A stretch of 64,000 nt of DNA from a virus (IMGVR_UViG_3300021400_001346:1-64000), one strand, 5' to 3'. Numbered from the stretch's first letter, positions 32,083-51,694 are shown. Translations and numbers: made by a program. The notes: generated by a model from the sequence alone, not told the origin.

Positions 32083-32538
32083 TTATTTTAACTTATTCTT
32101 TTTACTTGCTAACTCTGCCAACTTCGCCGCGCGTTTCTTTTCCAACTCGGCCTCGTGACGTGAACGTTCCTCTGCCTTAGCAAGACGCTTTGCAGTTTTT
32201 TGGGCGCGCTCTTCATCGTAAGCAATGGCTTCAAGGAAGGGGTCAAAGTCAAGGCTTTTGATGGTGCTTTTTAACTCCCAACTAAATGTAAAACCACCAG
32301 GTTCGTTTTCAACTGCGATGACGATGCCTTCTTTGGTTTCAAGAATGTCGAAATCGTCGCCTCATAGGGCTTTGAGGTCGCTAATAAGAGCCTCAAGTCC
32401 GCGCTTACGAAGTTCATTACGAGCGCTTTGTTGAATAGTTACGGTGCCGGTGGAGGTAGTATTGGTAGCGTAGGTATTGATGGCTACTTCATGCAAGAAG
32501 TCCTTAAAGAGAGAAGAACTATTATTACTTTCGTTCAT
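32083..32538 (-). CDS. Hypothetical protein, 151 aa (TGA=Trp)
   Basis: ggagg RBS; reads through TGA 32362 to TAA 32083; charged helical C-terminus. Confidence 0.75.
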
Positions 32539-33466
32539 GTAATTTCCTCCTAACAGTATTAGTATATTTGAGAAAACTCGACTTGTCAAGCAAAAATTGG
32601 TTTGGCAAATAAAAAAGAAGGGACGATTGTCTCCCTTCTCTATTCGCAGTGGTTCATTATTTACTTTATGTTGCGTAGAACATCTGACGTAGCCGCAATG
32701 TGGGTGGGAGATGGTATCTCCTCTTCGATGGTGCAAGGCCATCACCCCGTTCGATCGTGGGTCTAGTTTAGACCTGTTGCAGTATTTTCGGGCTTATCTG
32801 ACTAGCCTTAGTAGCGAATGATGAGCGCTACGCCCACCAATAATAAGCATCGTTATTGGACTTAACCATTGACGGAGGTTGCCACCCGGAAGTTAGATAG
32901 GAACTTCGCCTTGCTATTCGTAGGGTACTAGTATAATACTAACGGGCATAACTGACCGCATTGATTGTCTTCATTCGCAGTAGAAGGTAAGAACAATGAG
33001 ACTTATGTACTGCTTTGGTTGCGATGTTCATTTGACTTCGCCGTTAACGCGGACTGTCCACGCCAGTGAGCTAATTTTTGGTCTAGAAAATTAGATGAAA
33101 AGAATAGTTTGGTTTTTAGGCGTACGCTAGGATAGGTATCTATGGACTTACATACCATTGGGTAATGCCTCACCCTAACCCGAAATGTGATTTGGTTTTA
33201 GGCGTACACTAGGATAGGTTTTCTGGACTGACGCTTTAAAGCTGCCTACACCCAACCCGGTGATAGTAATGTCGCGAGTAAAGCCTTACAAACGCACGAT
33301 AGAGGTCTTTTTTAACTTTACTATCTAATTTATTATAACAAGTTTGCCAGGCTTAGTCAAGCAATTCTTGATATAATCGAGAGAGTTATTCAATCGCGAT
33401 GAGGAAGGGTCGCTGCGCCTAGAGGGCGCGCTCCCCACTTCCTATCTTGTGTTTAGTTTAGCCTAA

Positions 33467-33982
33467 CTATTCGACTGGTGTTAAGTTAGCACTATTAACT
33501 CCGTCGCAAAGTGCGTAAGTATTAACTGTGCTGACTTTGATTGATGCTAATTCGACTTGGTCGCCTTTAGCGATATTACCTTTCTTAACGAGTCCGTTGA
33601 TACGTCCGCTAGAAAGTTTTTCAAGTTTCATGACATCTGCAAGTTCTTCAAGAGTGAAGCGACCTTCAAAACTTGCGGCTGCCTTTAAGACTTCTGCTTC
33701 ACCGTCAGTGTAGTTGTAGTTGCCTTTTCCATTTGGATTAGCGATTGGGTCAGCAGTAACGAAGGTATAAGTATTGACCTTACGTGTTGCTGGTTTGTTA
33801 ACTTCAACTGTTCCTGATGCAGCGATAAGTCCTTTTCTCATTGCGCCAACGATATGTCCAGCGACAAGTTTAAGACCTGTGCTTTCATTGAGTTGAGCAA
33901 GTGTTTGATTTGGTTGTGCTTCAAGTGCTTTAACGATAGCAATGTCATTTGCTGTGTAAACGATTTTCTTTTCTTTTGCCAT
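33467..33982 (-). CDS. Tandem winged-helix protein (paralog family)
   Basis: Two internal repeats YT...TL..L...KG.I...VNTY. Confidence 0.75.
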   Translation of the reverse strand: MAKEKKIVYTANDIAIVKALEAQPNQTLAQLNESTGLKLVAGHIVGAMRKGLIAASGTVEVNKPATRKVNTYTFVTADPIANPNGKGNYNYTDGEAEVLKAAASFEGRFTLEELADVMKLEKLSSGRINGLVKKGNIAKGDQVELASIKVSTVNTYALCDGVNSANLTPVE

Positions 33983-34143
33983 AATATTTTCTCCTTTGAT
34001 AAACCCCAACGTAGTTGTAAGGATCCCGGGGTCGGTCCTGAGAAGTAGTGAAGACTTAACTATTTCTTCTTTACTTCTTAACTATAATTATTATACGGTA
34101 GTTGCTCGGCTAATGCCAGAACAATTTTCATTTAGATGGATAA

Positions 34144-34371
34144 TTATTCCGTGCGCTGAATTGGGTGATTGCCTTGAATGACGGCGTCCTTAACCATTTC
34201 TAGCACTTGCTTCTTTGCGGTTCTCGCTGGCTGGTTAGGTATGGCGGCGGCGCTATATGAGTAGCCGTCGGCGCATTCGAAAGAGGCCGTCCAAGCATCA
34301 TTGACGTTTTTGTAATAATTAACATGCGCCTCAATATATTGCTCGTTAGTTAGTGGCTTTTTAGTTGGCAT
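34144..34371 (-). CDS. Hypothetical protein
   Basis: MPTKKPL behind gagga RBS. Confidence 0.6.
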   Translation of the reverse strand: MPTKKPLTNEQYIEAHVNYYKNVNDAWTASFECADGYSYSAAAIPNQPARTAKKQVLEMVKDAVIQGNHPIQRTE

Positions 34372-34672
34372 CGTCCTCGTCCTCCTTTGAATAGTAGAAG
34401 GCATCGTCACGCAAGTAAGCAGTTAATTCCTTGTCTTCCCATGGTGCTGGACGGACGTCTTCGAGGTCGCTATTGAACCAAATGTAGCCGCTACTTTCAT
34501 CGCAGGTAGTGTCATGAGCCTCGACGATGGTGCAATAGCCATCGCTACCAATACGGATTTCATAGCCCATGTCCATAAGAACATCGAGCAACTTGTTAAA
34601 ATTGCGGCGATCCTTCATTTCCTCTGGGGTGAATGGTATGCTTACATCTGGTCTGTGGTTATCTACTTTCAT
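34361..34672 (-). CDS. Hypothetical protein
   Basis: Coupled to sigma factor gene. Confidence 0.6.
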   Translation of the reverse strand: MKVDNHRPDVSIPFTPEEMKDRRNFNKLLDVLMDMGYEIRIGSDGYCTIVEAHDTTCDESSGYIWFNSDLEDVRPAPWEDKELTAYLRDDAFYYSKEDEDDAN

Positions 34673-34674
34673 AA

Positions 34675-35502
34675 TTATTTTCTCCTTTCCCAATTGAGTT
34701 TGATAGTTGATAAGGTTTCATTTAATATTTGACGGACACGTTCACGGGTGATGCCGAGTTCAAGTCCGATGGCTTCAAGTGTATGTTCAGAGCGCCAATC
34801 TTCTGGATCAGTAGGTTCGCCGAGTCCGAAACGCATTTTGATGATGGTTTGGACACGTGGTTTGAAGGTGCTGATGACAGACATAAGGCGGTCATGAGTT
34901 AAACTTTCTTCTGCGTAGCCGCTTGGTGTTGGTTCACTGGTATCGGCGCAAAGGTCGGACAAGGTGTCTTCACTGTCGTCGCCGAGTGGCATATCGATGC
35001 TGTAAGTGTCTGACTTCCAGCCGCGCAATGCTTCAACTTCATCTGCGGTAATACCCATGCGGGCCGCGATGGACTCGTTGGTGATGTCAACACCTTCGTT
35101 GGTGAGGTCGTTGATGGCCGCGCGATACTTTGAAAGTTTGGCGTAGATGTGGGCTGGAATACGAATATTACGACCCTTGTCGGTAATAGCTTTGGTGATG
35201 GCTTGTTTAATCCATGGAGTCGCGCAGGTGCTAAAACGATAGCCAAGGTCTGGGTTATATTTTTCTACTGCGGTGATAAGTCCGGTGTTGCCCTCCATGA
35301 TAAGGTCGAGCAAATCGAGATGTCTATTTTGATAGTTCTTCGCAATAGAAACAACTAGACGCAAGTTGCTATTGATAAGTTGTTCACGTGCGGCCGCATC
35401 GCCATTACGGTATTTATAGGCAAGGTCAAGTTCTTCCTCTGGTTTGAGAAGAGGATATTGACCGATGGTAATTAAATAATCTTTAAGTGTATTTGTGCTC
35501 AT
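34675..35502 (-). CDS. RpoD/SigA-family RNA polymerase sigma factor
   Basis: NLRLVVSIAK, DLIMEGN.GL, RFSTCATPWIKQAI, IRIP, TLEAIG...TRERVRQI. Confidence 0.95.
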   Translation of the reverse strand: MSTNTLKDYLITIGQYPLLKPEEELDLAYKYRNGDAAAREQLINSNLRLVVSIAKNYQNRHLDLLDLIMEGNTGLITAVEKYNPDLGYRFSTCATPWIKQAITKAITDKGRNIRIPAHIYAKLSKYRAAINDLTNEGVDITNESIAARMGITADEVEALRGWKSDTYSIDMPLGDDSEDTLSDLCADTSEPTPSGYAEESLTHDRLMSVISTFKPRVQTIIKMRFGLGEPTDPEDWRSEHTLEAIGLELGITRERVRQILNETLSTIKLNWERRK

Positions 35503-35711
35503 TTGCTTAAATCTCCTTTTTTAACTTTCCTTATACTAATATTATACATGATAATTTGCACTTGGTCAACAAATTTTTGCCCGGCCTGAATAACTTTTCG
35601 CGGCGAGCAACGCGCACTATCCCAATTTAATATTAGGTTTTTATTATTTATATATTAATTATATAGTAGAAGCACGGCTTCGTCAACAATTTTTGCAGCA
35701 TAATCAACAAA

Positions 35712-37400
35712 TTTCCGTCTAGCCCTGAGCAGCTGCTGAGCGCCGCGGAGTGGTAAGCCAAGTCCTGCTGCTGCCGGGAGTGAATGGCATGCCAATCGCT
35801 GCTTCTACCTAAGCCCACCCAACGTCGGGTCGGTCGGGGCAGACGGAAAAAGCCTAGTCAGTTTCGACTAGGCCAAACCCAAATAAAAAGGTCCCCTTGC
35901 AGGACCCGGTTCATAAAAAGATTGCGGCAACAATCTTACGTGGTATTGCCGTACCACGATTTACCGCTACATCTGCTGATGCTCACTTTCCGCGGCGAGA
36001 CGACCATTTCTATTTTACGCCACATGGTCGAGGAGTAGTTGGTCAATATTATTTTAGTTACTTGTTTGACTAAGCGCTTGCAACCATCGCGCTAAATCAG
36101 GGGTGCCCAATCCGCATCTGTTTTATTTTCTGTGGTACAGTCCCACGGACCATGCCGGTTTCTCTCCGGCGCCTCCGTGCCCAGGAGTCAGGGTGTCGTC
36201 AGCACATCGTTGGTCCTAGACGGTTGCGGCCGCCACAGACCATTGCCACCTGGATAGTTTTCAAGGCACTATCAATCGCCATCGGAGTTACCTTTGTCAG
36301 CGGCTCCTCAATATGACATATTCTTTCATTAGCGCTCTACCCTTACACGTCGGGTAATTAGCCGCGCTCCTCTACTACTTGCTGCGTGTCAGCTGCACCA
36401 CGTTTGGCCGAATCTCGGGACATACGTGTTACGTCTGTGCCTAACGGTAGATTACGCTCTACTGCACTGCACCGTGTTCTTCCCAGCCGAATTGGTCATG
36501 CCAATTTCTTACTCAACCTTAGTCCTGGTAGCCGAGATATACACGTCACGTTCGTGCGTCCGGCAAGTTATTGCTCTTGCTGCGCTAATTCTATACTTCA
36601 ATCGGAGTTGAACCGTCTATTCATCCTAGTCCCTTTGCTAGGCGCGCCTTTCCGCTCGGCCATTTATCATAGAATTCGGGAATTAATACTAATGTGGAGG
36701 TTGCCTCCACCCCGCATCGTCTGCGGATGCCTTAGTAGCCAATCGGAGTCGAACCGACATCTTCCTCTATCCGGTTTAGGGTGCTCTGTCCGCGGGTATT
36801 GCCCTTGAGCTATGGCACTGTATATGCTTTATAGTGCATTGGCTAGCACTTCGTTGACTTAGTGCAGTTTTGGTTGTTTAAAGGGGCGTTACTCCCTGCC
36901 AGCTAGTTTCTTGTCCACCCTCCGATCCTGTAAACCGAAGGGGCGGCGCACGACTGCCGCGTCGGAATGATTGGGGTCTATCCTACCCAGTGAGGTCTCG
37001 CTCACTTCGAGAGTCGCTTTGGCTAGATGCTATGCTCATCGTCCGGGTGTTTAGTCTCTTAAGCCCAACTACTTAACGGCTAGTTAACCGACAGCAGGCT
37101 CTTTCACGTTTTGACGTCTTAGTATTCACCCTGGTTACTGCTGCGTGGGTGTTTTGGGACCAGCCAAGGAGTTAAACCTCGGACTACCAGTCGTGCCGGC
37201 CATAGTTATCATGGGGAAGAGTTGCAGGTAATCTGCCTGCCTCTTGCTACGGGGAATTTAAGCCCGTGCTCGGCGATTTCTCTGAGGTACGTTGTCCCCG
37301 CCTTGCGGCTGCCGGTCATTGGGTTCCAACCCATGTAATAGGGTGCTCTCTTCTTTGTTTTTTAACGAGGGGTATACGCCGAGCAGGGAGATGTTCCTCA
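35712..37400 (-). ncRNA. Cluster of structured non-coding elements including tRNA-like pieces
   Basis: 1.7 kb GC-rich, no credible ORF, many hairpins, promoter at about 37421-37450. Confidence 0.55.
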
Positions 37401-37441
37401 ATTAATTTCTTACTATATTTATTATACTACTTCGTGGCGGC

Positions 37442-37639
37442 TTAGTCAACAACTTCTTCAGTAATTTCGTACATATTGTCGAAGTCGAGCCAATAATGAC
37501 CGCTCTCTTGGTCTCCAACTATGCGGTATTGATTGTAGTTGGTGGTCGCCATTTCTTTAACCCAGGCGTTGAATTGGGCTTGGTCCATGACTATGGTGGC
37601 GCCGCCGTAGCAACGTCTAACTGTATATCTTTTGTTCAT
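37442..37639 (-). CDS. Hypothetical protein
   Basis: aaggag RBS. Confidence 0.6.
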   Translation of the reverse strand: MNKRYTVRRCYGGATIVMDQAQFNAWVKEMATTNYNQYRIVGDQESGHYWLDFDNMYEITEEVVD

Positions 37640-37679
37640 CTGTAATGGTGCTCCTTCCTGGGTGGTGCGACCAGCAAGA

Positions 37680-37928
37680 CTATTCAGTCTTGCTAGTTTC
37701 TAACGCAGTGTTGCCTAAAGCATATTCGGCAACTTCAACGTAAACGGTCTTTGCGACCTTGCGGGTACCGACCTTAACTAAGATACCTGCGGCGACCATA
37801 GCATTAGTAGTGCCGGTCTTAACTTCCTTGCCGACCTTTTCGCTGATTTCGGCTAAAGTCATGCCCTTTTCGGCTCCCTTTAATGCATTAACGACTGCAA
37901 CTCTAGTTTCATTTACTTTAACGTTCAT
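37680..37928 (-). CDS. Small winged-helix protein (paralog family)
   Basis: GMTLAEISEKVGKEVKTG...GILVK...EYAL; several tandem promoters upstream. Confidence 0.75.
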   Translation of the reverse strand: MNVKVNETRVAVVNALKGAEKGMTLAEISEKVGKEVKTGTTNAMVAAGILVKVGTRKVAKTVYVEVAEYALGNTALETSKTE

Positions 37929-38829
37929 AATCTTTTCTCCTTTCCTTAATCCTTATATTAATATTATACACCTTTTATTCGGTCTAGTCAAGAGTTATTT
38001 TGACTAGGTAGTTAATTTTTTAAGATGTATCTTTTTACTTCTTATTAACTAACTACATATATATTATACACCTTTTATTGGGTTTGGTCAATTGCAAATC
38101 TTGGCTAAGTAGTTTGCATTTTTGCGACCGTAAGATGTTTTCTTTTCTTCACCACCTTACATATAATATTATACGCCAAAACTTCGACTATGTCCATTGT
38201 AAAAACTGGCTAGATAAGTTTGCATTTCTTGGCTTCCTGCTGCTTCTATGCAAGTTAGTCTTGACAAACCCGGCCCGAAGGGCAGACGGAAAATAAGCAC
38301 AACTCGGTAGAAAAGTCAAGCAAAAAATTGTGAAAGCGCTTTCTTGCTGCTGCTTCTCAAAAAACTCTTGACAAATCCGGATTTTTGGGGGCAGACGGAA
38401 ACAGACGGATCCGTCGGGCCAGACGGAACGCCGCGAAAAAAAGACGACCGAAGTGGTCATCTATCTTTTCTTTGGTTTCGTTCTTTTATTTTTGCCAGGC
38501 TTGAAATATGGATGCGGCAACAAGTCTTGACCGCTATAACTATTAGTATGGTAAGGACCTATTGACCCCAGCAAGTATAATAAGTTTCTTTGTGATGATT
38601 TCATATTTACTACCTCTCATGATATGCGGCATCAAGCCATAGGTTAGTCCAGTGCCAACCTTTAATCGTGTCTTCTACCACCGCGGCATCTGTAATTTCA
38701 TACCAGCCATAAGGTTCTCTGTCAGTAGACCTAATAACAACTACATCATTTGGATTTGCTTTGCGAAGTACACTCATTAATTCTTTTACAGTCATTGTGT
38801 GGTCAGTGGCGGAGACCGAGACCACGGCT

Positions 38830-39294
38830 TTATTTTTGGAAAGCATCATAACTTTCTCCCATCCGTCTACTTGGTCTGTCATGAGCAAACAACCATGCGC
38901 CCTTATTTTGAATATAAACAGTAAAGTTTTCATTGTTATAGGTAAAATCTATATAATCGCCGAAGCATTTACTGTGATTTCTTTCAGTAATAACTATACC
39001 TTTATAATTGTGGTATTTTTCCCACACTTTACTTTTTATTGAAGGAAGTTGTATAGCAATTTTTCCGTCTACTGGTAAATGGTTATAATCAAACCCTACA
39101 TTTGGTTTTAAATTACTGAAAACTCGGTCAAAACGATTTTCTCTGATGGCATCTAAACATCCGTCTAAGATATCTTCAGGAGTAACTGCCATTGTATAAG
39201 TATTAGTAACGGTTGTTTTTGTATGTTTTAGTTTTCCGTCTGCATCATAAGATGCGTATGTAATAGTTGTTTCTTGTCTTTCTAAGATTTTCAT
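38830..39294 (-). CDS. Hypothetical protein
   Basis: ORF in operon, start MKILERQ. Confidence 0.65.
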   Translation of the reverse strand: MKILERQETTITYASYDADGKLKHTKTTVTNTYTMAVTPEDILDGCLDAIRENRFDRVFSNLKPNVGFDYNHLPVDGKIAIQLPSIKSKVWEKYHNYKGIVITERNHSKCFGDYIDFTYNNENFTVYIQNKGAWLFAHDRPSRRMGESYDAFQK

Positions 39295-39313
39295 AACTTC
39301 CGTCTCCCTCCGT

Positions 39314-39595
39314 CTAGTCTTCACCTAATTCTAATTCTTCTTTTGCCATTGCAATGAATTGGTCTTTACTTAAATCTAACTTGGCATTAAGTATTTCTGA
39401 TACTTCATAAGGGCTTACACTTGAATATATTGCGCCGTCCATATCTACAAACTTATAATTCCAATAGATTTGTTCTAATATTTCAGTGTCGCTCCAATCT
39501 GGATAATTATCACGATACCAATCATATTCTTGGCGCAAATTTTCTTCGTCTAGGTCAATTGTAAACTCTTGATTAATACTAAAAGTCAATTGCAT
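39314..39595 (-). CDS. Hypothetical acidic protein
   Basis: ORF in operon. Confidence 0.65.
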   Translation of the reverse strand: MQLTFSINQEFTIDLDEENLRQEYDWYRDNYPDWSDTEILEQIYWNYKFVDMDGAIYSSVSPYEVSEILNAKLDLSKDQFIAMAKEELELGED

Positions 39596-39613
39596 ACCTT
39601 CTTCTCCTTCCGT

Positions 39614-40231
39614 CTAGGCGCGGGCTAATTCCCACGCCTTTAATAAAATTGCTAACTCAATTTTACTATCTTCAAGTGCCGTGTGTTCTTCCTTATAGTC
39701 CGTCTGACCAGTTAAGTATCTAAACACGGTTTCGGCTTTTGCTTGGCAACGAGGTCTTTTGTGTTTTGTCATAAAGCCGTTTTTTCTACAAAATGTTTTA
39801 TACTCTTCCGTCTCAGTGATATGTGGGTCGGTTAAACCTTTCCATATATCTTTAATTCCGTCTGCGGTTGGATTGGTTTTGCTGTTAAGTTTTTCGCAAG
39901 TCTTTGCAATCGCACGGGTATCAAAGCGTGAATTATAAGCATAAATTCCGTCTACGCCATATTTATTCATATCTCGTTTTAACATACGCAAGATATAAGA
40001 CCATTTGGTTTTCTTACAATATCCGTCTGCTAAACGTTGGTAATAAATTGGCAACTTGTTGGCATAATATGCGGTCTTCATGAGGTTGGCATTATCAAAG
40101 ATTTCGCTGGTGAGATAATCACGAGCCTTAATGATGTTGTCCGTCTCACTATCGTAAACGACATAGCCTAAGTCGTAAACTGATGGGTTGAATACCCCTA
40201 ATGTTTCAGTGTCAAGAACAATAATTTTCAT
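39614..40231 (-). CDS. DEDDh 3'-5' exonuclease
   Basis: LDTET, AYNSRFD, HTALED. Confidence 0.9.
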   Translation of the reverse strand: MKIIVLDTETLGVFNPSVYDLGYVVYDSETDNIIKARDYLTSEIFDNANLMKTAYYANKLPIYYQRLADGYCKKTKWSYILRMLKRDMNKYGVDGIYAYNSRFDTRAIAKTCEKLNSKTNPTADGIKDIWKGLTDPHITETEEYKTFCRKNGFMTKHKRPRCQAKAETVFRYLTGQTDYKEEHTALEDSKIELAILLKAWELARA

Positions 40232-40852
40232 GTCCGTCTGGTTCCCCTTTCTCTCTTTCTTTTTTCTTCTTTATGATAATATTATATCATGAATAGATAT
40301 TGCTGTCAATACCTATTTAAGAATTCCGTCTACCGCGAGGTGATAAGCCATTATCCGCAGAATAATATTAACGTATGTAATATTAGAGAGTTTTGTATCC
40401 TTGCACTATCAACTGCAAGTTGTGGCAACGAAATTCTTAAATAGATACTATTGTCAATACCTATTTAAGAATTCCGTCTGCCGCGGGCTGGCTAGTGCCA
40501 TTATTCTCACGTGCGCTTATGGATTTCCACCTCAGGAATAGAAAGATTTGCCATTCTTACCTATTTGCCCCTGTTAAGTCGTGGCACGGAACTCTTAAAT
40601 AAGTATTGTTATTTCCGTCTGGTGGAAGGTTTCACTTAGGTTAACCATCATTTTACTAGTAATAAGTGAAGACCTTCCGTCTACCCATTTCTCCTTGGGC
40701 GGCTTACCCTTACGTGCGCCTACTATACCCTACGTGTCCGTCTGGCGAAAAACTTGATAGACAATGAGACCATTTTCTCATTAAGATAGGTTCAGGCTAA
40801 GGGGTCCGTCTGAGCCCATCTTAATGAGAGGAAGGAATTACCTTCCGTCTCC

Positions 40853-41128
40853 CTATTCAGCGACTAATTTGTAAACGGTGTCGCTATAAGATTTATGACC
40901 GATGACTTCTTTATCATAGACAATGTCGGCAACAAACTCTCTCTTTCCGTCTGTGTTGACAATACCTTTTGTCTTTAAGGTATTAATAGAGCCTGTTTTA
41001 AACTCTTTGCCACTGACTTTTTTGATTTCTCTTAAAGTCATTCCGTCTGGGAATTGCTCCTTATTGTTTGATAAGATTTCAACGAATGATTTTTGAGTGT
41101 CGTTCATAACCCATTTTCTGTCTGCCAT
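40853..41128 (-). CDS. Small winged-helix protein (paralog family)
   Basis: GMTLREIKKVSGKEFKTG...KGIV...VYKL. Confidence 0.75.
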   Translation of the reverse strand: MADRKWVMNDTQKSFVEILSNNKEQFPDGMTLREIKKVSGKEFKTGSINTLKTKGIVNTDGKREFVADIVYDKEVIGHKSYSDTVYKLVAE

Positions 41129-41163
41129 AGTTATTTCTCCTTTCCTTAACTTTCTACTATATA

Positions 41164-41620
41164 ATTATAGCATACTTGAAGCAATCGTTCAAGGGTTTAT
41201 TTCAGTTTTCCGTCTGCCGTTTTTCCTTTTTATAAGTGGAACTCTTTAACTTTCTTACCTTAATATTATATCATAATATTTAAGGCTTTGCAAGAACTAT
41301 TTTTAACTTTCCGTCTGCGAACTTTTGCTCGGCTTACGATTACTAGGTTAATTAATTCTTACTACTATATTATATCATATTCTCATATGATATTCAAGCA
41401 CTAATTTTAAGTTTCCGTCTGCGCCGTTCCTTTCAACCAGCGCCAACTCAACTTTCTTCTACCTTAATATTATATCATAATATTTAAGGCTTGTAAAGAG
41501 ATAATTTTATCTTTCCGTCTACCCCAAACTTATTTGAGGCACGGCTTACTTATCTCTTGTATGTAAATATTATATCATATTTACATATAAGAAACAAGTA
41601 GTTTCTACTCATTTCCGTCT
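41164..41620 (-). promoter_or_regulatory. Five tandem sigma-A-type promoters at about 101-bp period
   Basis: TG-N-TATAAT at 41164, 41265, 41369, 41469, 41569, each 17 nt from a TTG/TTT -35 box, each with AGACGG upstream. Confidence 0.85.
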
Positions 41621-41937
41621 GAAGGTCCGCTCACGCTAACTCTACGATTTAATGTAGTCAACACCTCATAGAATTGACCTGCGACCAATTTATTCCATTT
41701 TCCGCCTGGGTTATCAATTGTGGCTTCTTCTTGAAACACAACCTTTCCGTCTGCATTTTGTCTGCCATATCTAATGTTATATTGTATAGACTTATAGTCA
41801 TCATCTGCAATTATGGTTGTGCTATCAATACAAACATAGGTTCCGTCTAGTGGCGCATATTCTTCACGCATAATGGCATTTAATTCTTTTTCTAACTTTT
41901 TTATTTGTCCGTCTGTGATTTTAATTTTGTTATTCAT
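41605..41937 (-). CDS. Hypothetical protein
   Basis: Own promoter and RBS. Confidence 0.65.
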   Translation of the reverse strand: MNNKIKITDGQIKKLEKELNAIMREEYAPLDGTYVCIDSTTIIADDDYKSIQYNIRYGRQNADGKVVFQEEATIDNPGGKWNKLVAGQFYEVLTTLNRRVSVSGPSDGNE

Positions 41938-42046
41938 AACTTTTTCCCCTTTCAATTTTTTCTTACCTATAATATTATATCATGCCTACTACGGCTTTGC
42001 AATACCCCAATTCATTCTTCCGTCTCTAAGACGGAAGGCTTAGGGC

Positions 42047-42517
42047 TCAACCTTGGAGCACCTTACCTTCGCTTCCGTCTACATCGGCATTTAATACTGT
42101 TGCAAGGATTGAGGTGTGAGGGTAAATCTTAATTGCGGTTCTTCCTCCGTCTGCCCATTGTTTGCAATTAACTCCATAGTCATCGAGTAAAATGCCTGTT
42201 TTAGTTTTTGCAAAGTCGCTCTTGTTTTGTCCATTGCGCATAATAATTACTCTACGCATAGGCAATTCAGGAAGGTATTTTTTAATCCGTCTGCGCTTAT
42301 CTTTATCGGCTTGTTTGTTTGGCGAGGCTGATAAAATACGAACGCTATAACCTAACCCAATTAAGGCTTTAATTCCGTCTAAGTGTCCTTGAATTGGTGG
42401 AAGATTTGCAAAGAAACCTTTTTCCGTCTCAAAACGATTTCTCCATCCGTCTGCGCTATAGAAATCGGCAATAACTCCGTCCATATCACAATAGATAAAC
42501 TTTTTTGTCTTTTTCAT
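42047..42517 (-). CDS. HAD-family 5'(3')-deoxyribonucleotidase-like protein
   Basis: DMDGVIADF, ILSA, K, LLDD. Confidence 0.85.
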   Translation of the reverse strand: MKKTKKFIYCDMDGVIADFYSADGWRNRFETEKGFFANLPPIQGHLDGIKALIGLGYSVRILSASPNKQADKDKRRRIKKYLPELPMRRVIIMRNGQNKSDFAKTKTGILLDDYGVNCKQWADGGRTAIKIYPHTSILATVLNADVDGSEGKVLQG

Positions 42518-42705
42518 AGTGTTTCCCCTTTCTATCTGATATAATTATATCATGCTTACATCTGCTTGTCAACCCGTCTGCCTGATATAATTATGCAGTA
42601 GTTAGGAATGTTATGGAATGCTTAGAGGAGGTTCACCCCTAACTACTCTATAATTATATCATAGTGGCGGTGGCTTGTCAATGCCACCAACCACCTTTCC
42701 GTCTG

Positions 42706-42930
42706 CTAATATTCAACTCCAAGTTGATTACAAAGCCTTCTAATCATTTGCGACCTTGTTTCGAGTTTTCTAACAACCTGTCCGTCTGGCAAAGTCTTCA
42801 TATAGATTTGCTTTTGACTGCAAGCACTATGCCGTTTTCCGTCTGCACTTTTCTCTAGTAATGATACGGTTGTCCATCCGTCTCTATCAACGACCTTATA
42901 CTTTTTAACTTTTGGTTCTTTTGTTTTCAT
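42706..42930 (-). CDS. Small basic hypothetical protein
   Basis: Own promoter and agggg RBS. Confidence 0.6.
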   Translation of the reverse strand: MKTKEPKVKKYKVVDRDGWTTVSLLEKSADGKRHSACSQKQIYMKTLPDGQVVRKLETRSQMIRRLCNQLGVEY

Positions 42931-43165
42931 ACCCCTTAATTCCTTTCTAGTAATATTATATCATACTTTTTGTGGCTTGTAAATAGCCTATTTTATTTTT
43001 CCGTCTGCCCTATTGTCTTAAAGCAATCCAAACATAGAGTTGTTCGCTCTCTTTTTGTTCCGTCTCATCCGCCTTTCCGTCTGCGACCTTTTGCTTTAAT
43101 TCTTGTAAGCGTTGTTCTAATTCTTCCATACCCCTTAACTCCTTTTCTAATAATATTATATCATA

Positions 43166-43603
43166 TCAATATACTAATTGCAATAGTTTATCTTTTAAAT
43201 CCGTCTGGATTTTTTTCGCACATACTTTTATTTTACGGCAATTTAAATTATTATAATATTGCATATCTTTTTCAAAATTTTGTATACAATCCATTAAGGC
43301 TTTTAAATTTCCGTCCGTTTTATTACGTGCCCATCTAAACATTAAGCGGGCTATCCATTCTTCTTTACTTCCGTCTGGAATAATTAGAATAAAATTTACT
43401 TTTAATTTCATAAGTGTTTCAATAACACATGGGTGGGCTGATAAGAAAACATCTTTTCCGTCTGCTTCTATTTTGCGTGCAGTATAAATATAATTAACTT
43501 GCCAATTTTTTACTTTTTTAAAAGTATTACTATCTAAATCAATACCGTCCGTCTCAGCGCACAATGTTGTTTTACCTACGCCACTATATCCACAAAATAG
43601 CAT
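43166..43603 (-). CDS. P-loop nucleotide-kinase-like protein
   Basis: GYSGVGKTT, IDLDS. Confidence 0.75.
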   Translation of the reverse strand: MLFCGYSGVGKTTLCAETDGIDLDSNTFKKVKNWQVNYIYTARKIEADGKDVFLSAHPCVIETLMKLKVNFILIIPDGSKEEWIARLMFRWARNKTDGNLKALMDCIQNFEKDMQYYNNLNCRKIKVCAKKIQTDLKDKLLQLVY

Positions 43604-43638
43604 ATTTTACCCCTTTCGCCCTTTCTCACTAGTTAGGT

Positions 43639-44124
43639 TTAAAACCTAACTAGTGTTTCTAATACTTTACTAACGCCCTTAATTTTTCCGTTTTTAGCAA
43701 AGTTGTAATATTTAGTATTTGAACGATAGACACCATAAGGGTCGACCATAATGAGTTCTTTATACTCGCCGTTTTCATAGTCTTGCAATTGTTTTTCACT
43801 AATACTTGCGTATGCGACCGAGTTCGTGTATTTAATTTCATAGTCGTGATTATTAAGTTTTAAATCTACACGACCAGCACTATATTTACTAGCACTTTTT
43901 TGATTTTTAAGTAATAATTTAATCAAGCATTCAACGACCGAGCCACGATTTAAAACTTTGCCATTTCTAGCGACCTCGCACGTAATTTGCGCTTTATTGT
44001 CTAGCATATTGCATAATGAAATTATAGCATCATTGCAAGTGTGATTTTTTGCGTTTGCTTTTGTGTCGTTGATATACATATCACGGACGGAACGAATAGA
44101 TAAAGTTTGAATTGTGTTTTCCAT
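43639..44124 (-). CDS. Hypothetical protein, possible PD-(D/E)XK fold
   Basis: GSVVE...VDL...YEIKY. Confidence 0.5.
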   Translation of the reverse strand: MENTIQTLSIRSVRDMYINDTKANAKNHTCNDAIISLCNMLDNKAQITCEVARNGKVLNRGSVVECLIKLLLKNQKSASKYSAGRVDLKLNNHDYEIKYTNSVAYASISEKQLQDYENGEYKELIMVDPYGVYRSNTKYYNFAKNGKIKGVSKVLETLVRF

Positions 44125-44434
44125 AAAATAACCCCTTAATTTATTCAACTTTTTAATAAGTCTTTTAACTTATTACACTTATAATTATAAACTTTTATTT
44201 TTTGTTGTCAATACTTTTTTTAAAAGTTTTTTAATTTTTTTTGTAATTCGTTTTTTAACTTATTACACTTATAATTATAAAGATATATTTTATAGTGTCA
44301 ATTGCAAAAACGATTTTAATATATTGCAAAAATTATTATGTGGGGGGGGGTAGTATTAATTTTTTTCACATTTTTTCAAAAATTCCGGCCCACCTCTGGT
44401 AGAAAATTTATATGCTCCATTTTTTGATGACTGC

Positions 44435-45397
44435 CTACTTCTTATTCAACCCAATCTCCGTACACCCGTACCAGTCGATCCACCATCTTTCTCTTTCATT
44501 CAACAGTCTTCTATCATTCACCCTCTCAACTACTTCTCAGTAGAAATCTTCAATCAGATGGTCCTCATACAACTTCTCACCTCCACTACTCTCCACTCCT
44601 ATCATCTTTTTAGCGTGTTGGTACCATCTCTCCTTAATATTAACTGCCTGCCCAACATAGCAAACCCTAACATCATCTTTCAACACCAATCTATAAATGC
44701 CGCAACAACCGTCGGCTTCTTCTCTCTTCACCAATCGTTGCATGGCTGGCATTCAGACCTTTCTCCATTCGATGGCCGCCAATTCACTTTTCAAATCCCC
44801 GTACTCTTCCTCGATCGTCCTAATCAGTTTCACTAACTTCATGTCTCTCCCACTCACTTCAAGCGGCCAACCATTTTCGCCACCTTCTTCCTTTCAGCCG
44901 CGCAAGACCGCTAACCTATTCTCTGTCTGTAGCCTCTCCAATTCTTCCACCAGTCTTTGAACTTCTTCTTTGCGGCGACCCAACACGCTGTCGACTTGAG
45001 TCAATTCTTCCTTGGCATGCACCAAATCGGCCGCCACCTTCTCCATTTCAGCTTGGCGTTCATTGAGAGCCGCGAGTTGTTGTCCAGCATGGGCGCTCAA
45101 GTCTTCCTGTTGACCCTTCAGAATATTCGCCCTCTCTTCTCAATAATTCACCTGGTTTTGAAGTTCATCAATGCGGCCACATTTGGCTAATAGAGCCTCA
45201 TTTGACGCTGTTACCTTCTTTAACTCCTCAGCCGCCTTATCTCGTTCCTCAATAGCCTTAGTTAACTTAACTACCAATTGCCTAACTTCATCGGCATGGT
45301 CGTCACTTTTATCCTTCTTATATTTAATTAAAACGGTTGTAACAATTAACGCCGCGATTAATACCATCGCCACGCTTACGCATATTCCTATTACCAT
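44435..45397 (-). CDS. TM-anchored coiled-coil protein with C-terminal GIY-YIG domain, 320 aa (TGA=Trp)
   Basis: Three ORF-track pieces in one frame joined by TGA; GIYRL...YVGQAVNIKERW..H...LNERERWWI. Confidence 0.8.
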
Positions 45398-45444
45398 ATT
45401 ATCTCCTTTTTCCTATTATAATAAAAAAAGTTGGCCCGCGCCAA

Positions 45445-45669
45445 CTATTTTTCCTCATCGAAGCCTAAACTTTCCGCATCGTCTCCTTCCAGAGACGCCA
45501 TGATGCGGGCTCAAGTAGCCTCATCGAGTTCGATATCATCAATCAGTTTAGTTTCGGCATCGAATAAATGCACGAAATCAACTGTTTCATCTAATTGTTC
45601 ATCTGTTAAAAATTTTTCGGCATCTAATTCTACACCCGTAGGTCCGCCATTCTTATTTTCAATTTTCAT
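45445..45669 (-). CDS. Small acidic protein, 74 aa (TGA=Trp)
   Basis: MKIENKNGG... with gagg RBS, one TGA, TAG stop. Confidence 0.6.
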
Positions 45670-45814
45670 ATAATACCTCTTGTTAATTTACTTTATAAAA
45701 GTTTCTATTAATTATCAAAAATACATTTTCAGGCTACCATTACTATGAAAAAGCATTTTTGAATTTTTCAGTTTTATTGCATTATACTGATAGAAAGGAG
45801 ATATTAGACATCCT

Positions 45815-46813
45815 ATGATAAAATATAACTATGGTACTTGCCCTAAATGCGGCCGCCATAACGTAAAGCTAGTTTATTCTAATAACCCATTAAGCGGCAC
45901 TACGATTTGTTTCAACTGTGTAAAAGATAACCTCGATTATCAAAACTTATCACATGCCGATTTTTTCTGCCGCACTTATAACATTCCATTCGATCCAGAA
46001 CTCTGGTTACAATATTGCGACGAAGTAGGCAACGACGTTTTTGAAGAATACACTTCTCTTCAACTTGAGTCTCAAGAAGACCACCAAAACCTTTATTATG
46101 GTTCGGCAACCGCCGACCTTTGGAACAAAGTTAATAAAGAATGGGAAAAATGCCGTTCTTTCTCTGAAATATTGCGCAAACTTCCAACCATCAAAGACTC
46201 TTATATGGAACGTGGCCATTTAAAATGGGGCGAGCAATATACTTTTGAAGAACTTATTAAACTCGATTCTATTTACACCCGCACTTTGCGTGCCAATAAC
46301 ATTACTAATCCGCTTCAACGTGAAGCCGTTAAGACGCTTTGCAAACTGCAAATCGAAATGGACGAAGCTATCCGCGCGAAAGACGCCAAGGCCATCCGTG
46401 ACTTTTCTAATGCATGGTCAACTTTTGCTAAACAAGCGGACCTTGAAACCATGATTAATGAAACCAAGACTGATGACATCACTACCGTCGCCGAATTATA
46501 CGACTACATGGAACGTCAAGGTTTCCAATTCAAATACTTTGATGGATTTGATCGTGATGAGGTTGACCGCACCATTCGAGATATCCAAGATGCCAACCGT
46601 CAACTCATTCTCGAATCAACTGGTCTTCAATCACTACTCGAGGAAATGCGCGATCAACGTAACCGCACCCTCGAAGAAGAAAAGACCAACCAAGTCATTA
46701 AGGAGGAAACTCCATTGGAAGACCTTCTCAACTTATCACCTGCCGACGTCGACATTGATACAGAAGACGATTCCGAAGCCATTGAAGAAGATTTTTCTGA
46801 AGGAACAAATTAA
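45815..46813 (+). CDS. Zn-finger protein upstream of TerL (possible terminase small subunit)
   Basis: CPKC...CFNC N-terminus; position. Confidence 0.6.
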   Translation: MIKYNYGTCPKCGRHNVKLVYSNNPLSGTTICFNCVKDNLDYQNLSHADFFCRTYNIPFDPELWLQYCDEVGNDVFEEYTSLQLESQEDHQNLYYGSATADLWNKVNKEWEKCRSFSEILRKLPTIKDSYMERGHLKWGEQYTFEELIKLDSIYTRTLRANNITNPLQREAVKTLCKLQIEMDEAIRAKDAKAIRDFSNAWSTFAKQADLETMINETKTDDITTVAELYDYMERQGFQFKYFDGFDRDEVDRTIRDIQDANRQLILESTGLQSLLEEMRDQRNRTLEEEKTNQVIKEETPLEDLLNLSPADVDIDTEDDSEAIEEDFSEGTN

Positions 46814-46816
46814 CAA

Positions 46817-48625
46817 ATGCTAGTAGACGATTTTTTTGATGATAGTTATATAGATCCTGAAATTGAGGACTATATTAATTTTTTAGACGCAGATGAGCAA
46901 GAAACCACCGGCTTCTTAACTAAAAAGCGCATTGACGCGCATTTTCAAGAGTGCGGCGAAATGCTCAATTTTTTCATTGCCTATCCAGACCGCTTCGTTG
47001 ACATCATTACGCCGCATGAAAGCCACTTCCACCTATTCTTCTTCCAACGTATTATGATTCGTTGCATCGCGCGTGGAATTGCAACTTTCGAGACCTTCAG
47101 CCGTGGTACTTCAAAATCCTTCCTCGCCGACCTCGAAAGATACTTGCACTGCATGTTTGTGCCGCGCCATGATACAACCATCACCGCGGGTACAAATAAA
47201 CAGGCGGCCGAAATCGCTAAACAAAAGATAGTTGATGACTTATGGGTGAAGTTCCCTCTTCTCGCTAACGAAATGCAAAAGCGTAAAGTGGCCGGAAAAA
47301 TTTTAGACGCCTATAAAATGGGTAAAGACTATGTTGAATTTAATTTTAAAAATGGCTCTTCACTCGGCCTCGGAAACGTAAGAGGTTTGCGTCGTAAATC
47401 TCTAATCTTCGAAGAAGTTATCGAACAAGATCCAGTCAAAGTTAATGAAGTCTACATTCCTTTACTTAACGAACCTCGTAAACTTTACAACGGCCTTATT
47501 AACCCTTACGAACCACAATCTCAACAAATATATATTACTACTGCGGGCTATCAAGGCACCTTTGCCTATCAAAAGCTTATCGAAATTTTATGCCGCTCTG
47601 TCTTCGAGCCCGACCATTACTTTGTCCTTTGCGGTACTTATCGTTTGCCGCTCTCCGTGGGGCTTACCTCTAAAAAGCAAATCGAAGACATTATCAACGC
47701 ACCTTCATTCAGCCGCGCGTCCTTCGAACGTGAATATGAAAGCCGCTGAAGTGATGCCCCTGCCGGCGCGGCCTTTAGCAGTAGTGTTGTTTCTTCCTTA
47801 CGTCAAGTTAAAAAGGTTGAACTTAAGGATAAACGTACGGAACTTCAAGTCTCTGAACAGTCATGCTTCTATGTCATCTGCGCCGATATGGCGAAGGATG
47901 GTAGCGCAGACACGGCAGTAGGTGTAGCCAAGGTCACTCCAAAAGACCATTACTTCACTTACAAGTTCGTCAATCTCTTTACCATTCCATCTACTGACTA
48001 CATGGTAGTCGCAAATACTTTCAAGAAAACCGTTCTAGCCTATAATGCCCGATTACTCATTTACGATGCTAATGGTATTGGCGCCGCGATGAGAGACTGA
48101 TTAAACAAAGAAACTACTGACGAATTTGGCAATTTATTAGAAGGTTTAGGTATAATTAATCCGCCAACTTCCTCAGAACGAGACTTGATAAGATATCCAA
48201 AAGATAAGACAATATGTTATGAGATAAAATCTGGAGGAAAAATTGGAGAACAAATCCATTATTTCTTCTTTTCTCGTATGAGTACAGGCGCAATTACTTA
48301 TCCAATTAAACTTAACGAAGCGTTATCTCTTTACTCAAAGAACAAAACATTTATGCAAATGAGTATGCGCAAACAACAAGAATATCTACTTCCTTTCAAA
48401 ACAATGGATTTAATGGAAGAAGAACTTAAAAACTTAGATATCGTTAATACATCTGACAATATGTCCAACTCTTTGCGTATTGTAAGACGTAACCCCAACA
48501 TTCAAAAAGACTTTTTCTCCATGGCGGAGTATTTAGTCTGGGGAGTTAATCAACATTTAGAACTTGAATATTATCGTACTAAGCGTAGTCGTTCTCAAAA
48601 ACGTATTATCGCTTTAGTAAACTAG
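46817..48625 (+). CDS. Terminase large subunit, 602 aa (TGA=Trp)
   Basis: SRGTSKS, RGLR, IFEE, ITTAG, FEREY, ADMAK, IYDANGIG, KDFFS; joined at TGA 47747 and 48098. Confidence 0.92.
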
Positions 48626-48638
48626 GAGGACGATTATT

Positions 48639-50186
48639 ATGGCGAAAAAACAAGATAAACCATTAACATCTGCTGAAGAAACTACCAACTTCAGAACCGA
48701 TCGAGCTAAAAAAATAAAAGAACTTTACGCCGATGATACGGCTGCTCGCCACAAAAGAGACGAAAGTCCTCGTAACTCCGGCTCGAACTACCTTACCGCG
48801 GCTCAAGTCAGGGAGGCGCTTTCAAAAGCCATTTCTGACCATACCAGTATTTCAGAGACCTCTAAGAAACTTTATGCTATCAATCCTATTTATGCATCTA
48901 TCATTGACTATATGGCAGATGTATACTTATGAAGATATAAAGTCATTCCTAGAAAATTATACAATAAAAGTAAAGCAAAACTTCATAAAACTAAAAAAGA
49001 AGACGACTTTACTATCATGTATAACCTCATGATTAACGTTGTAGATGGTTTAATGATTGAAACACAATTTCCAAACCTTCTTACCGCCCTCTACATTAAT
49101 GGCTCAGTTTATCTAACCACTTATTGTAACCCAGACAGCCTTACTATTGATACTCTAGTATTGCCTGACGCTTACTGCCGCAAAATTGGCGAAACACAGT
49201 ACGGAAGCGGCATTATCCAATTTGACTTTTCTTATTTTGACCAGTATACTTCTGAAGTAGATTTAAAAGACGCTTTAAAAATGTTCCCAAAAGAGTTTAC
49301 TAAACTCTATAATCGCTATAAGAAAGATAGAACTGACAAATGGCAAACTCTTGACCCACGTTTTTCTACCGGCGTCTTATTAAATGAATATGGTATTCCA
49401 ACTTACTTCTATTTATTAGGAGGCATCTTAGACTATGAACAATACCAAGATAATGAACTTGAACGTAATGAAAACTTACTTCGTTACCTTGTCGTTCACA
49501 CCATGCCACACTACGAAGATAAACTTATCTTTGAAATGGACGAAGTTAAAGCCATTCACCAATCTATTAAAAAGATTGTTGATACTGGCGACAAGGCTCG
49601 TTTAATTACTACTTTCGGTGACGTCCATGTTGACCGTATTGCCGATGAAGACACTACTGCCAACGAAGTTCTTGCTAAAGCATATGAAGCAATTTTCCAC
49701 AATGCCGGTTTCAATAGCGCTATGTTTATTAGCGACAGTGTTACCGCACTTGAAATGTCATTGATTCGTGACCGTGCAAAGGTCTGGAGATATGTTAATC
49801 AATTTTTAAATTTCTATACTATTGCAATCAATAATTGATTTGATTTTAAAGAGTACCAAGCGGATATTGATATTTTACAAATCTCTCCATATACTTATAA
49901 AGATGATATAAAATTGTTTAGAGATAATGCCACATTAGGTGTTGGAAAACTAGACTATTTTATCGCAGCCGGAATAAAGCAAAAGGACATTCCAGACCAA
50001 CTTAGTTTGGAAGACCATTTACATCTTAATGATATCACTCCAATGCAAACGTCTTATACACAAACTGCGGAAGACCGTGCGGCGGATGATAATAAATCAG
50101 ATGATACCAAATCAACTTCATCTGGGATTGAGCCATCAGACGAAGACGAAGAAACATCATCTTCTACTGCCACTAATGAGGACTAA
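48639..50186 (+). CDS. Portal protein, 515 aa (TGA=Trp)
   Basis: Follows TerL; size; joined at TGA 48930 and 49836. Confidence 0.8.
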
Positions 50187-50188
50187 AA

Positions 50189-51694
50189 ATGAAAAAGCAT
50201 CCTACTATTAATTATAGCTGGCCAGCCTTATTGTTTGATTTAAAAGCAGATCCAAGTAATGGCAACTATTCTCGTGGAAAACTTGGTGTTTTCTATAAAG
50301 GCGAGACAGCGGACCACCGTTATTTCTCAGATGCCTTTTGTGAAAAACTCATTAAAACCCTACCTTACGCACCTGTCGTAAGTCATTATGACGAAGAAAA
50401 GGACGATTTCGTAGGACACGCAACTCAACAAAACATTTATGGTATTGTTGACCCTTGTGTAGAACCAACTTTCCAAGTTATGGAAGACAACAACACTTGA
50501 GCAATCTGTGATGTCGTCCTCTATACAGATCGCCCTGACAAGGTTGGCGAAATAGCGAAAAAGATTATTGGTCATAGTCAATCTTTGGAGCTAAATCCAG
50601 ACACAGTGGATTATAAAATCAACTATGACGAAAAGAAACACTTCAAAAATATTGAATTTACCGCAGGAGACATTATTGGCGTAAGTGTATTAGGCTCTGA
50701 TCAACAGCCAGCATTTACAGGTTCCGCATTCTTCGAATACGACGAACAATTTGCCGCAAAGATGAAAATGCTTAAAGAATACTGTGAAAAGCAACATGAT
50801 CAAGATAACAGTGGAGGCAAAATAGTGAATTTACAAGAATTTATGAAGCTCTCCTGGGGTGACATTTCTCAAAAAGTCTACGAAGCAATTAGTCACGAAT
50901 ACGAAAATGACGCATTTGTTATGCCAGTTGACATGTTCGAAGACAGCGCAATTGTTCGTTTCTACTATTATGTAGAAGGTAATGTAAAACTTATGCGTGT
51001 AAAATACTCCATTAATGATAGCGGCGACGTTACATTAGGAGATGTGAACGAAGTTCATATTACATACGAAGACGTGATTGAGAATAGTGTAGGCGTTAAC
51101 AATGCCGAAGTCACAACAACAGAAGGTAGTTCTGTTGCCACACCTGAAACCAATGCAAGCGAAGGTATTTCAACCGCTAGTGAGCTTAGCACTACAACTG
51201 ACAATATCATCACCGCCGCATCTGATGTTTCAACAACTCCAACAGAAGACCCTGTTAATACTGATGAGGTAGCATCTGCTGCCGAAAATTCATCAGCAGC
51301 ACAACTTGAAAACGCTGAAGTCACCGACACAGAAAAGAAAGTGAGTGACGGTAATGAACAAAACTCAACAACAAAAGAAGAGGGTGCAAGTTCTGCCTCA
51401 TTTACTGATAGTGAAAGAGCGCAATTTGAAACCCTTAAAAGAGAAAAGAAAGTAAATCTTCTTAACTCTTACAAAGACAAAATTTCTGAAGAAGACTATA
51501 ATAACTTTTTAAATGCTATTGATACCTTCGCAGAAGAAAAAGACCTTGAGCTTGAAGTTCTTAAAGCTTACCAACGTAATCTTGAAGAAAATTCAACTCC
51601 AATACGCGGAGTTTTCTCATTGAACTCCATTATCAATCACAATGAGAACAAAGACGATTTAGCTACCTATATTCGTAGACAATTAAATCGTTAA
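50189..51694 (+). CDS. Prohead protease/scaffold, 501 aa (TGA=Trp)
   Basis: GH, QSLEL, VLG...PAF then acidic low-complexity scaffold; joined at TGA 50498. Confidence 0.8.

Follow-up and report, generated by a model that had tools for sequence, protein, structure and literature searches.

A one-way carpet of an exact DNA heptamer in the early gene module of a family of uncultured phages, and its link to a distinct promoter class

Cluster A mycobacteriophages have monomeric repressors whose sites, asymmetric 13-mers numbering more than 20, are found at operators and stoperators; the sites are oriented along the direction of transcription, and repression is lost when one is reversed (PMC9283540). 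Chi, the host's own over-represented octamer, is found about once per 1.9 kb in phages LLS, P1 and MD8 (PMC12315714), and the first-step-transfer region of phage T5 carries arrays of 8 DnaA boxes together with direct and inverted repeats in untranslated regions (10.1101/866236). Here we describe a far denser pattern, a carpet of the word CCGTCT on the plus strand at 38863-43554 of IMGVR_UViG_3300021400_001346:1-64000, the first 64 kb (hereafter the window) of one 115,739-bp phage contig of 37% GC. A prior reading of the sequence alone (hereafter the sequence-only reading) had put the word at about 50 same-strand copies where about 0.5 were expected; our count is 50 against ~0.49 (13.46/2 x 4692/64000), a ~100-fold enrichment confined to one tract of the genome, with a single reverse copy inside it, at 42029. 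The carpet is a real, strongly selected feature that is conserved across a phage family and, to our knowledge, has not been described previously; a literature search on the word returned nothing relevant.

Over the whole 64,000-nt window and both strands, CCGTCT occurs 69 times versus 13.5 +/- 4.0 in shuffled sequences, none of which (0/100) reached the observed count. The core of the word is one base longer, as T precedes CCGTCT in 49 of the 50 tract copies, and across the entire 115,739-bp genome TCCGTCT is found 54 times on the plus and 7 times on the minus strand, with 49 of the plus-strand copies falling in 38862-43554. Outside the tract, the frequency of the word in the whole-genome count is approximately that expected from composition. 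The minus strand, which is the sense strand of the tract, reads AGACGGA, and 390 sites from 7 phages give the sense-strand consensus g-C-AGACGGA-A-a (gCAGACGGAAa). Exact heptamers outnumber one-mismatch forms by 380 to 45, although one-mismatch words are a priori 21 times more numerous, and inside the carpets of the 7 phages 380 sense copies stand against 8 antisense ones, all carpet genes being co-oriented. The carpets hold 7-15 copies per kb, or one per ~70-120 bases across 3-7 kb (mean spacing in the window 96 bp, with a coefficient of variation (CV) of 0.52), and this spacing is more even than random (CV 0.43-0.64 versus 0.98, P <= 2e-4), with few gaps below 30 or above 130 bp.

Relatives bearing the carpet were found in IMG/VR, partly by pattern scan, and in one contig from a metagenome-assembled genome (MAG); the GenBank phage collection yielded no close DNA relative. 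The same carpet, with 30-83 copies over 3-7 kb, is present in at least 6 other independently assembled phage contigs: L001/G002 and L002/G001 (118,402 bp, complete) with 48-54 copies in 4.4 kb, G009:C249 with ~70 copies in 7.1 kb and, from the pattern scan, L047/G004 (130,018 bp, complete) with 83 copies in 6.9 kb, L076/G005 with 61 copies, L017/G006 and L060/G007. Apart from the carpet, most of the early DNA of these contigs cannot be aligned. Most matches in the collection scan are (TCCGTC)n hexamer repeats unrelated to the carpet. The carpet phages form an uncultured family from gut or rumen, with genomes of 110-130 kb in which TGA is recoded, and have 33-38% GC and Firmicute-type signals, whereas their carpet-free kin have 30% GC. 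C249 (L179/L180) is a 24.8-kb contig binned in a 'Bacillota bacterium' MAG and carries the carpet, the exonuclease gene and a sigma fragment; its placement is either a binning error or a weak pointer to the host. The tract of the window is almost unalignable with that of L001, apart from the exonuclease gene and short pieces, and the carpet therefore persists while its content turns over.

These comparisons leave little room for the carpet as a product without function, arising by chance, mutational bias, a spreading repeat family or faulty assembly. Seven of the 50 copies do belong to a duplicated 61-nt promoter cassette (D1), as a spreading repeat would have it, but most sit in unrelated unique sequence and within genes, where they bring amino-acid changes; no tandem repeat structure was found behind the copies in the window, and no shuffle reached their number. 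The carpet is not an assembly artefact, because the independent assemblies G001/G002, G004, G005, G006, G007 and G009:C249 hold it as well. We consider this explanation effectively refuted.

That the word is maintained at the level of DNA is seen in the exonuclease gene, for which we compared 8 orthologues, 6 from carpet phages and 2 from the carpet-free L003 and L125. The six carpet orthologues each have 5-9 sense copies and no reverse copy, and the two carpet-free ones have none. The copies recur near the same alignment columns, without being identical in position and via different codons: the window and L001 have six each, four at the same codons and two elsewhere, with three frames in use. 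At the residues where the window and L001 share a copy, L003 has other amino acids (ADG to ASG, VDG to VEA, ADG to ACG and QTD to QVD). As these alignments show, the word is imposed on coding sequence at the cost of amino-acid changes; selection is shown to maintain the word itself at the DNA level, as well as its orientation and regular spacing. The sequence-only reading had held that the word is written into minus-strand genes, which agrees with the presence of copies in all three reading frames, and had interpreted it as a polar DNA-level signal. The latter part stands, given that carpet-free orthologues lack the word and have other residues in its place, while the Chi-like function listed among its options is not supported; the others, coating by a DNA-binding protein, a translocase guide or decoy sites, may apply. 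The orthologues also show the carpet to be conserved across relatives as individual positions turn over.

The word is further tied to transcription initiation. At carpet promoters it starts 22-25 nt upstream of the start of the -35 element (49 promoters in 6 phages, or 60 in 7 with C249), at 22-23 nt in five phages and 24-25 nt in L120, with an intervening stretch that is A-rich and of variable sequence. This lock holds for ~47 of the 56 promoter-like sites found within carpets, compared with 2 of ~60 promoters outside, both of which lie at carpet edges; seen from the word, a promoter stands at the locked offset for 15.4% of copies, versus 0.9% of control positions. A TG-extended -10 element is usual in carpet promoters and mostly missing in the window promoters outside the carpet. 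We thus show that a distinct class of promoters, found only inside carpets, has the word as a constant element upstream, at ~-58 to -51; the architecture of this new class is word-N16/17-(-35)-N17-TGnTATAAT.

Ten consensus promoters of the sigma-70/A type lie in the tract, all on the minus strand. The one at 43155-43206 illustrates the class, with the word, 17 nt, a -35 element TTGCAA, 17 nt and TG-n-TATAAT; at 42955-43006 and 42653-42704 the word lies 23 nt upstream of the -35 start, and at 40281-40331, before the exonuclease gene, the distance is 22 nt. Another member occupies 41974-42034 together with a word pair (42020-42025 on the plus and 42029-42034 on the minus strand), and 42020-42034 forms an 8-bp inverted repeat just after the dmp-like gene. 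Four tandem promoters of the class follow one another at 41164-41520 with ~100-bp spacing, each with its own word and no open reading frame (ORF) in between. The sole exception in the window is the consensus promoter at 42544-42579, for which the nearest word starts 7 nt upstream of the -35 start. The stretch 41129-41604, in which four tandem strong promoters precede a 91-aa gene, has like runs in L003, L076, L119 and L120.

The few reverse copies are confined to places behind gene ends or terminators. In the window, L119, L120 and L121, 3-5 of them directly follow the downstream terminator, in clusters where AGACGGA adjoins TCCGTC to form a palindromic junction and where a GAAGCAGCAGC box is conserved. 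The window's boundary cluster (38284-38426, minus strand) comprises four reverse copies after the intrinsic terminator at 38442-38462 (minus strand), which is the downstream carpet border, as well as the AGACGGA/TCCGTC junction at 38403-38416 and GAAGCAGCAGC boxes; the upstream border is marked by a terminator-like 13-bp hairpin at 43627-43655. Carpet and boundary-cluster arrows converge on the palindromic junction in the window, L119 and L121. Overall, reverse copies follow terminators or gene ends in the window, L119, L120, L121, L001 and C249, the last of which has reverse trios in the same orientation at both carpet ends, where each trio follows the end of a gene. Within carpets, those of the rare reverse copies that were compared with the ORF map follow gene ends too, as does that at 42029 after the dmp-like gene. 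An antisense consensus promoter is present in L001, L120 and L121, and the word is placed 3 nt beyond its -10 box, in an operator-like position. A smaller boundary-like element at 35715-35847 combines terminators, a reverse copy (35841-35847), a GCAGCAGC-rich spacer and a sense copy 34 nt upstream of the promoter at 35686. The GAAGCAGCAGC(A) box was seen beside reverse clusters at module borders in the four phages read (38234-38380 and 35740-35800 in the window; L119, L120 and L121). The carpet promoter class with its locked word, and the reverse copies after gene ends or terminators with their palindromic downstream junction, are new here.

Two carpet-free relatives provide natural comparisons. 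L003/G003 (30% GC) has an exonuclease 74% identical and a variant word, TTCCGTCGGGT. Between every terminator and the promoter cluster that follows it, this variant is repeated directly, in 4-5 copies spaced ~30 bp apart; one or two opposite copies lie in or after the terminator, and the arrays are found in both orientations. Within 3300-9600 of L003 the repeat unit consists of a gene, a terminator, one or two opposite variant words, 4-5 direct copies, 100 bp of extremely AT-rich sequence and then 1-5 tandem perfect consensus promoters. G008/L125 (30% GC) is syntenic across the whole module and has one TTCCGTC in 92 kb and no substitute word.

While we show that the word is linked to one promoter class, the mechanism behind it is offered as a proposal. 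We tentatively favor a model, which we rate as close to an even call without reaching it, where the carpet is a set of oriented, exact sites for one DNA-binding factor that works with the host sigma-A RNA polymerase on the early host-takeover module. The promoter lock, the reverse copies behind terminators and the L003 arrays are what argue for a protein site on double-stranded DNA functioning together with RNA polymerase. At promoters, the bound factor would touch RNA polymerase in the manner of a class I activator or of a phi29 p4-type, over-stabilizing repressor, and the ~85% of copies within genes may keep the whole module occupied. Since copies away from promoters show no promoter-likeness, any role for them is one that we infer: they could act as orientation-dependent, stoperator-like road signs for the polymerase or as a store of high local factor concentration. 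Reverse copies behind terminators would insulate adjoining transcription units.

Several points weigh against this model. Near-absolute heptamer exactness is typical of Chi recognition or of restriction-modification enzymes, and less so of most transcription factors. The ~85% of copies located away from promoters are not accounted for by promoter function, and no helical period or lattice was found between sites. The word system is dispensable for this gene set, because the syntenic G008 has the module without the word. Every carpet has its genes in a single orientation, which makes a link with transcription indistinguishable from one with the polarity of replication, DNA entry or packaging. 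Finally, no reader emerged among the winged helix-turn-helix (wHTH), PD-(D/E)xK, sigma and 151-aa proteins that we considered, all of which fail or are unsupported.

The wHTH protein (37680-37928), abundant-looking and encoded behind three tandem promoters, has a recognition helix that is conserved. Its counterpart in G008 is 53% identical and nearly the same in that helix, yet G008 has only that one TTCCGTC in 92 kb, and the protein was rejected as reader. The small PD-(D/E)xK-like protein (43639-44148) has a counterpart in the same position in L001, L119, L121, L076 and C249 and also in L003, with E73, D95 and K106 invariant and E104 nearly so; its AlphaFold2 model (pLDDT 90.6) gave weak Foldseek matches to Hjc, NaeI and HincII, and the fold is weakly supported. 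It was set aside since it is only 17-24% identical among phages sharing an identical word. The sigma factor (34675-35502) is present in G000, G001, G004 and C249 and missing at the syntenic place in G008; the reasons for its rejection are its absence from the 5.9 kb downstream in L120 and the lack of a second promoter element beside the word. The 151-aa protein (32083-32538, minus strand, read with TGA as Trp) is encoded in every carpet contig that reaches far enough and not in G008 or G003. Metagenomes supply more than 140 homologues of it, 52-67% identical, on contigs as long as 127 kb; it had no informative family or fold match and is a candidate reader only. Because the word is identical in phages whose early proteins are less than 25% identical, and because carpet and carpet-free phages split by GC content, we infer that the reader is no less likely to be encoded by the host, or to be highly conserved, than to be an early phage protein.

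Several other readings were weighed. The carpet could be a one-way 'self' code on the DNA that acts first in the cell: a dense, polar word would label the takeover module with its nuclease genes, and machinery tracking along the DNA would thereby handle it unlike host DNA. Such machinery might be the host-DNA-degrading nucleases of the phage, a helicase-nuclease of the host or a DNA or RNA polymerase, and reverse copies would act as borders. We regard this as rather unlikely, and as unlikely, with somewhat less weight, the related idea of a Chi-like signal that, when met in the right orientation, switches off a helicase-nuclease (host AddAB/RecBCD or an early phage nuclease) and so protects a first-entering module with nuclease genes during the destruction of host DNA. 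An exact, strictly polar and evenly spread heptamer with few long gaps is what such an enzyme would call for, the portal/packaging block starts 2-7 kb away from the tract, and one-orientation, terminally clustered Chi sites have a precedent in LLS, P1 and MD8 (PMC12315714); the DnaQ-like exonuclease and deoxynucleoside monophosphate (dNMP) nucleotidase of the module, with PD-(D/E)xK and GIY-YIG genes upstream, moreover recall the pre-early set of T5 (10.1101/866236). The sequence-only reading had listed Chi among its options, but Chi would be expected without relation to promoters, and the locked geometry is left unexplained; the reverse copies after gene ends, and above all the same-orientation trios at both ends of the C249 carpet, are ill-suited to gating incoming nucleases, and the L003 variant forms bidirectional arrays with 30-bp spacing. 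In 306 sampled Bacillota-type genomes, which include the MAG holding C249 and among which the phage host itself was not identified, TTCCGTCT is not enriched over its reversed control, being usually at or below it and at most ~2.5-fold above. The density is furthermore ~20 times that of Chi-rich phages, and the word is not enriched elsewhere in the phage genome.

The carpet could also guide or stop a motor in the manner of KOPS/SRS, steering or halting a translocase during entry, two-step injection or packaging with the palindromic boundary as end point; this leaves the promoter lock without explanation, as it does the reverse copies behind individual gene ends. This reading, which we consider improbable, draws on the purine-rich, asymmetric nature of the word, on its confinement to one module beside the packaging genes, on the AGACGGA arrows that converge on the palindromic junction as KOPS do on dif, and on the conserved repeat and DnaA-box arrays in T5 first-step-transfer DNA, a proposed injection stop (10.1101/866236). 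The density is, however, ~100 times that of KOPS, and no FtsK/SpoIIIE-like gene was seen among the proteins scanned, although no systematic search was made. Strand-specific nicking, priming or replication-initiation sites, amounting to T5-like interruptions or an origin zone and possibly made by the PD-(D/E)xK protein, are very improbable in our estimation, and receive the least weight of the functional readings. An exact, asymmetric one-strand site is typical of nicking and restriction-type enzymes, the PD-(D/E)xK gene precedes the five carpets examined, the L003 arrays with their AT-rich stretch and promoters resemble iteron origins, and relatives of T5 carry specific nicks (PMC10644984). 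The upstream nucleases are nonetheless 17-24% identical where the word is identical, ten nicks per kb on one strand would fragment that strand, and the promoter lock again finds no explanation. The word might instead act in RNA, with multiple AGACGGA copies tagging each early mRNA for an RNA-binding protein, an RNase or a UCCGUCU-bearing RNA, and serving their joint shut-off. It is always on the sense strand of co-oriented genes, and sense and reverse copies can form hairpins (42020-42034), lying in terminator stems in L119 and L003. RegB of phage T4 uses GGAG. Against an RNA tag, which we think highly doubtful, the locked copies lie upstream of the transcription start site at a fixed DNA distance from the -35 element, the boundary clusters are downstream of terminators, and the L003 arrays stand between a terminator and the next promoters.

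The genome that carries the carpet has 28 tRNA genes, a sigma factor gene and nrdD. Its genes run leftward from ~5 to 45.7 kb and the structural block rightward from 45.8 kb, with the portal gene at 48639-50186 read with TGA as Trp. That the tract may be the first-injected genome end, as the sequence-only reading thought possible, has as its one hint the distance of 2-7 kb to the beginning of the block of portal and packaging genes. The long ORFs at 46817-48625, 48639-50186, 50189-51694 and 44435-45397, which include the portal, a head protease and the GIY-YIG protein, appear only with TGA as Trp, and the carpet genes are readable without recoding. A large terminase identity was not confirmed for the 602-aa protein encoded upstream of the portal gene, and the terminal repeat of G001 (flagged as a direct terminal repeat) turned out to be only a 127-bp assembly overlap. 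The tract itself is a block of short leftward genes. The first carpet gene encodes a P-loop kinase-like protein (43166-43603, minus strand), and the block also includes the 5'-deoxynucleotidase gene (NT5C, dmp-like; 42047-42517, minus strand) and the DnaQ-like exonuclease gene (39614-40231, minus strand), which has 6 sense copies inside. Directly upstream of the carpet, the PD-(D/E)xK-like nuclease gene (43639-44148, minus strand) is driven by two consensus promoters without the word (44301 and 44211) and contains no copy, and the GIY-YIG gene (44435-45397) lies just upstream of the tract.

Two non-coding stretches were also observed. Between two early genes, 40310-40852 is a 540-bp untranslated, GC-richer stretch that may be a structured RNA; it holds a 148-bp direct repeat (40287-40342 / 40435-40490) and the long, imperfect hairpin, with bulged CT, that the sequence-only reading had pointed out and that we locate at ~40455-40488 paired with ~40578-40608. 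The stretch 35900-37420, between the promoter at 37449 and the terminators at 35851-35907, is GC-rich (~49%) with no convincing ORF, and parts of it are 79-81% identical in L001. A search of 33000-46500 gave no match to any Rfam family.

In these phages, selection overrides protein sequence to keep an exact, oriented heptamer every 70-120 bp in the earliest gene block, and whatever reads the word is central to how they start infection. With its 7-bp site, its constant promoter geometry and relatives that serve as natural controls without a carpet, the system offers a clean and testable handle, one that bears on early-gene control, on self-protection during host DNA destruction or on genome entry. 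More generally, dense DNA codes can be superimposed on genes to an extent well above that known from stoperators or Chi. A 'self' code, if true, would amount to an analogue of Chi/KOPS logic in a phage, combined with promoter architecture and of a kind not described so far.

Known systems share some of these properties each. Among class I activator sites and UP elements of sigma-70-type promoters, CAP binds at -61.5, monomeric MarA/SoxS act in an orientation-dependent manner, and p4 of phi29 belongs to the same group; the carpet word resembles them in its fixed distance and orientation upstream of the -35 element (~-58 to -51), where the alpha C-terminal domain is contacted, and in defining a promoter class. 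We know of no activator, however, whose sites are repeated dozens of times through transcribed genes. FtsK-orienting KOPS and the SpoIIIE-orienting SRS are polar words as well; KOPS are spread over the whole chromosome, at about one per 10 kb, and go with the polarity of replication. The carpet has in common with KOPS a purine-rich, polar 7-8-mer and arrows converging on a palindromic point, whereas KOPS are not known to be linked to promoters. The Neisseria DNA uptake sequence (DUS) GCCGTCTGAA requires a G before CC and is distributed genome-wide in both orientations in Neisseriaceae. It shares with the carpet the string CCGTCTG and the character of an exact, over-represented word, but the carpet has T before CC in 49/50 copies (98%), GC rather than GAA as the following bases, and its setting in phages of 33-38% GC, and we judge the resemblance to be coincidental.

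With T5 the carpet shares repeated protein-site arrays in a module with pre-early nuclease and dmp-type genes behind very strong host-type promoters; the T5 arrays are not a one-word carpet through genes, and no homology of the window phage to T5 was detected. The Chi of LLS, P1 and MD8 (PMC12315714) is likewise an exact, short, asymmetric word that is strongly over-represented, nearly always in one orientation and clustered, whereas the carpet is 20 times denser, unenriched in the sampled bacterial genomes and promoter-locked, and its variant in a relative forms bidirectional arrays. Of the systems described so far, the closest is the Cluster A operator/stoperator network (L5 gp71, TipsytheTRex repressor; PMC9283540), with which the carpet shares many dispersed asymmetric copies, an orientation that goes with transcription, a location both at and away from promoters, and probably reading by a monomer. 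Stoperators are 13-mers that number ~20-30 per ~50-kb genome (~0.5 per kb), sit in short intergenic spaces and serve temperate immunity through a known repressor; no repressor or lysogeny gene was identified in the phage described here, though no systematic search was made. The carpet, in contrast, has 7-15 copies per kb, concentrated in a single early module of 3-7 kb, mostly within genes and at an amino-acid cost, with the word placed upstream of the -35 element rather than over the promoter, and with reverse copies behind terminators.

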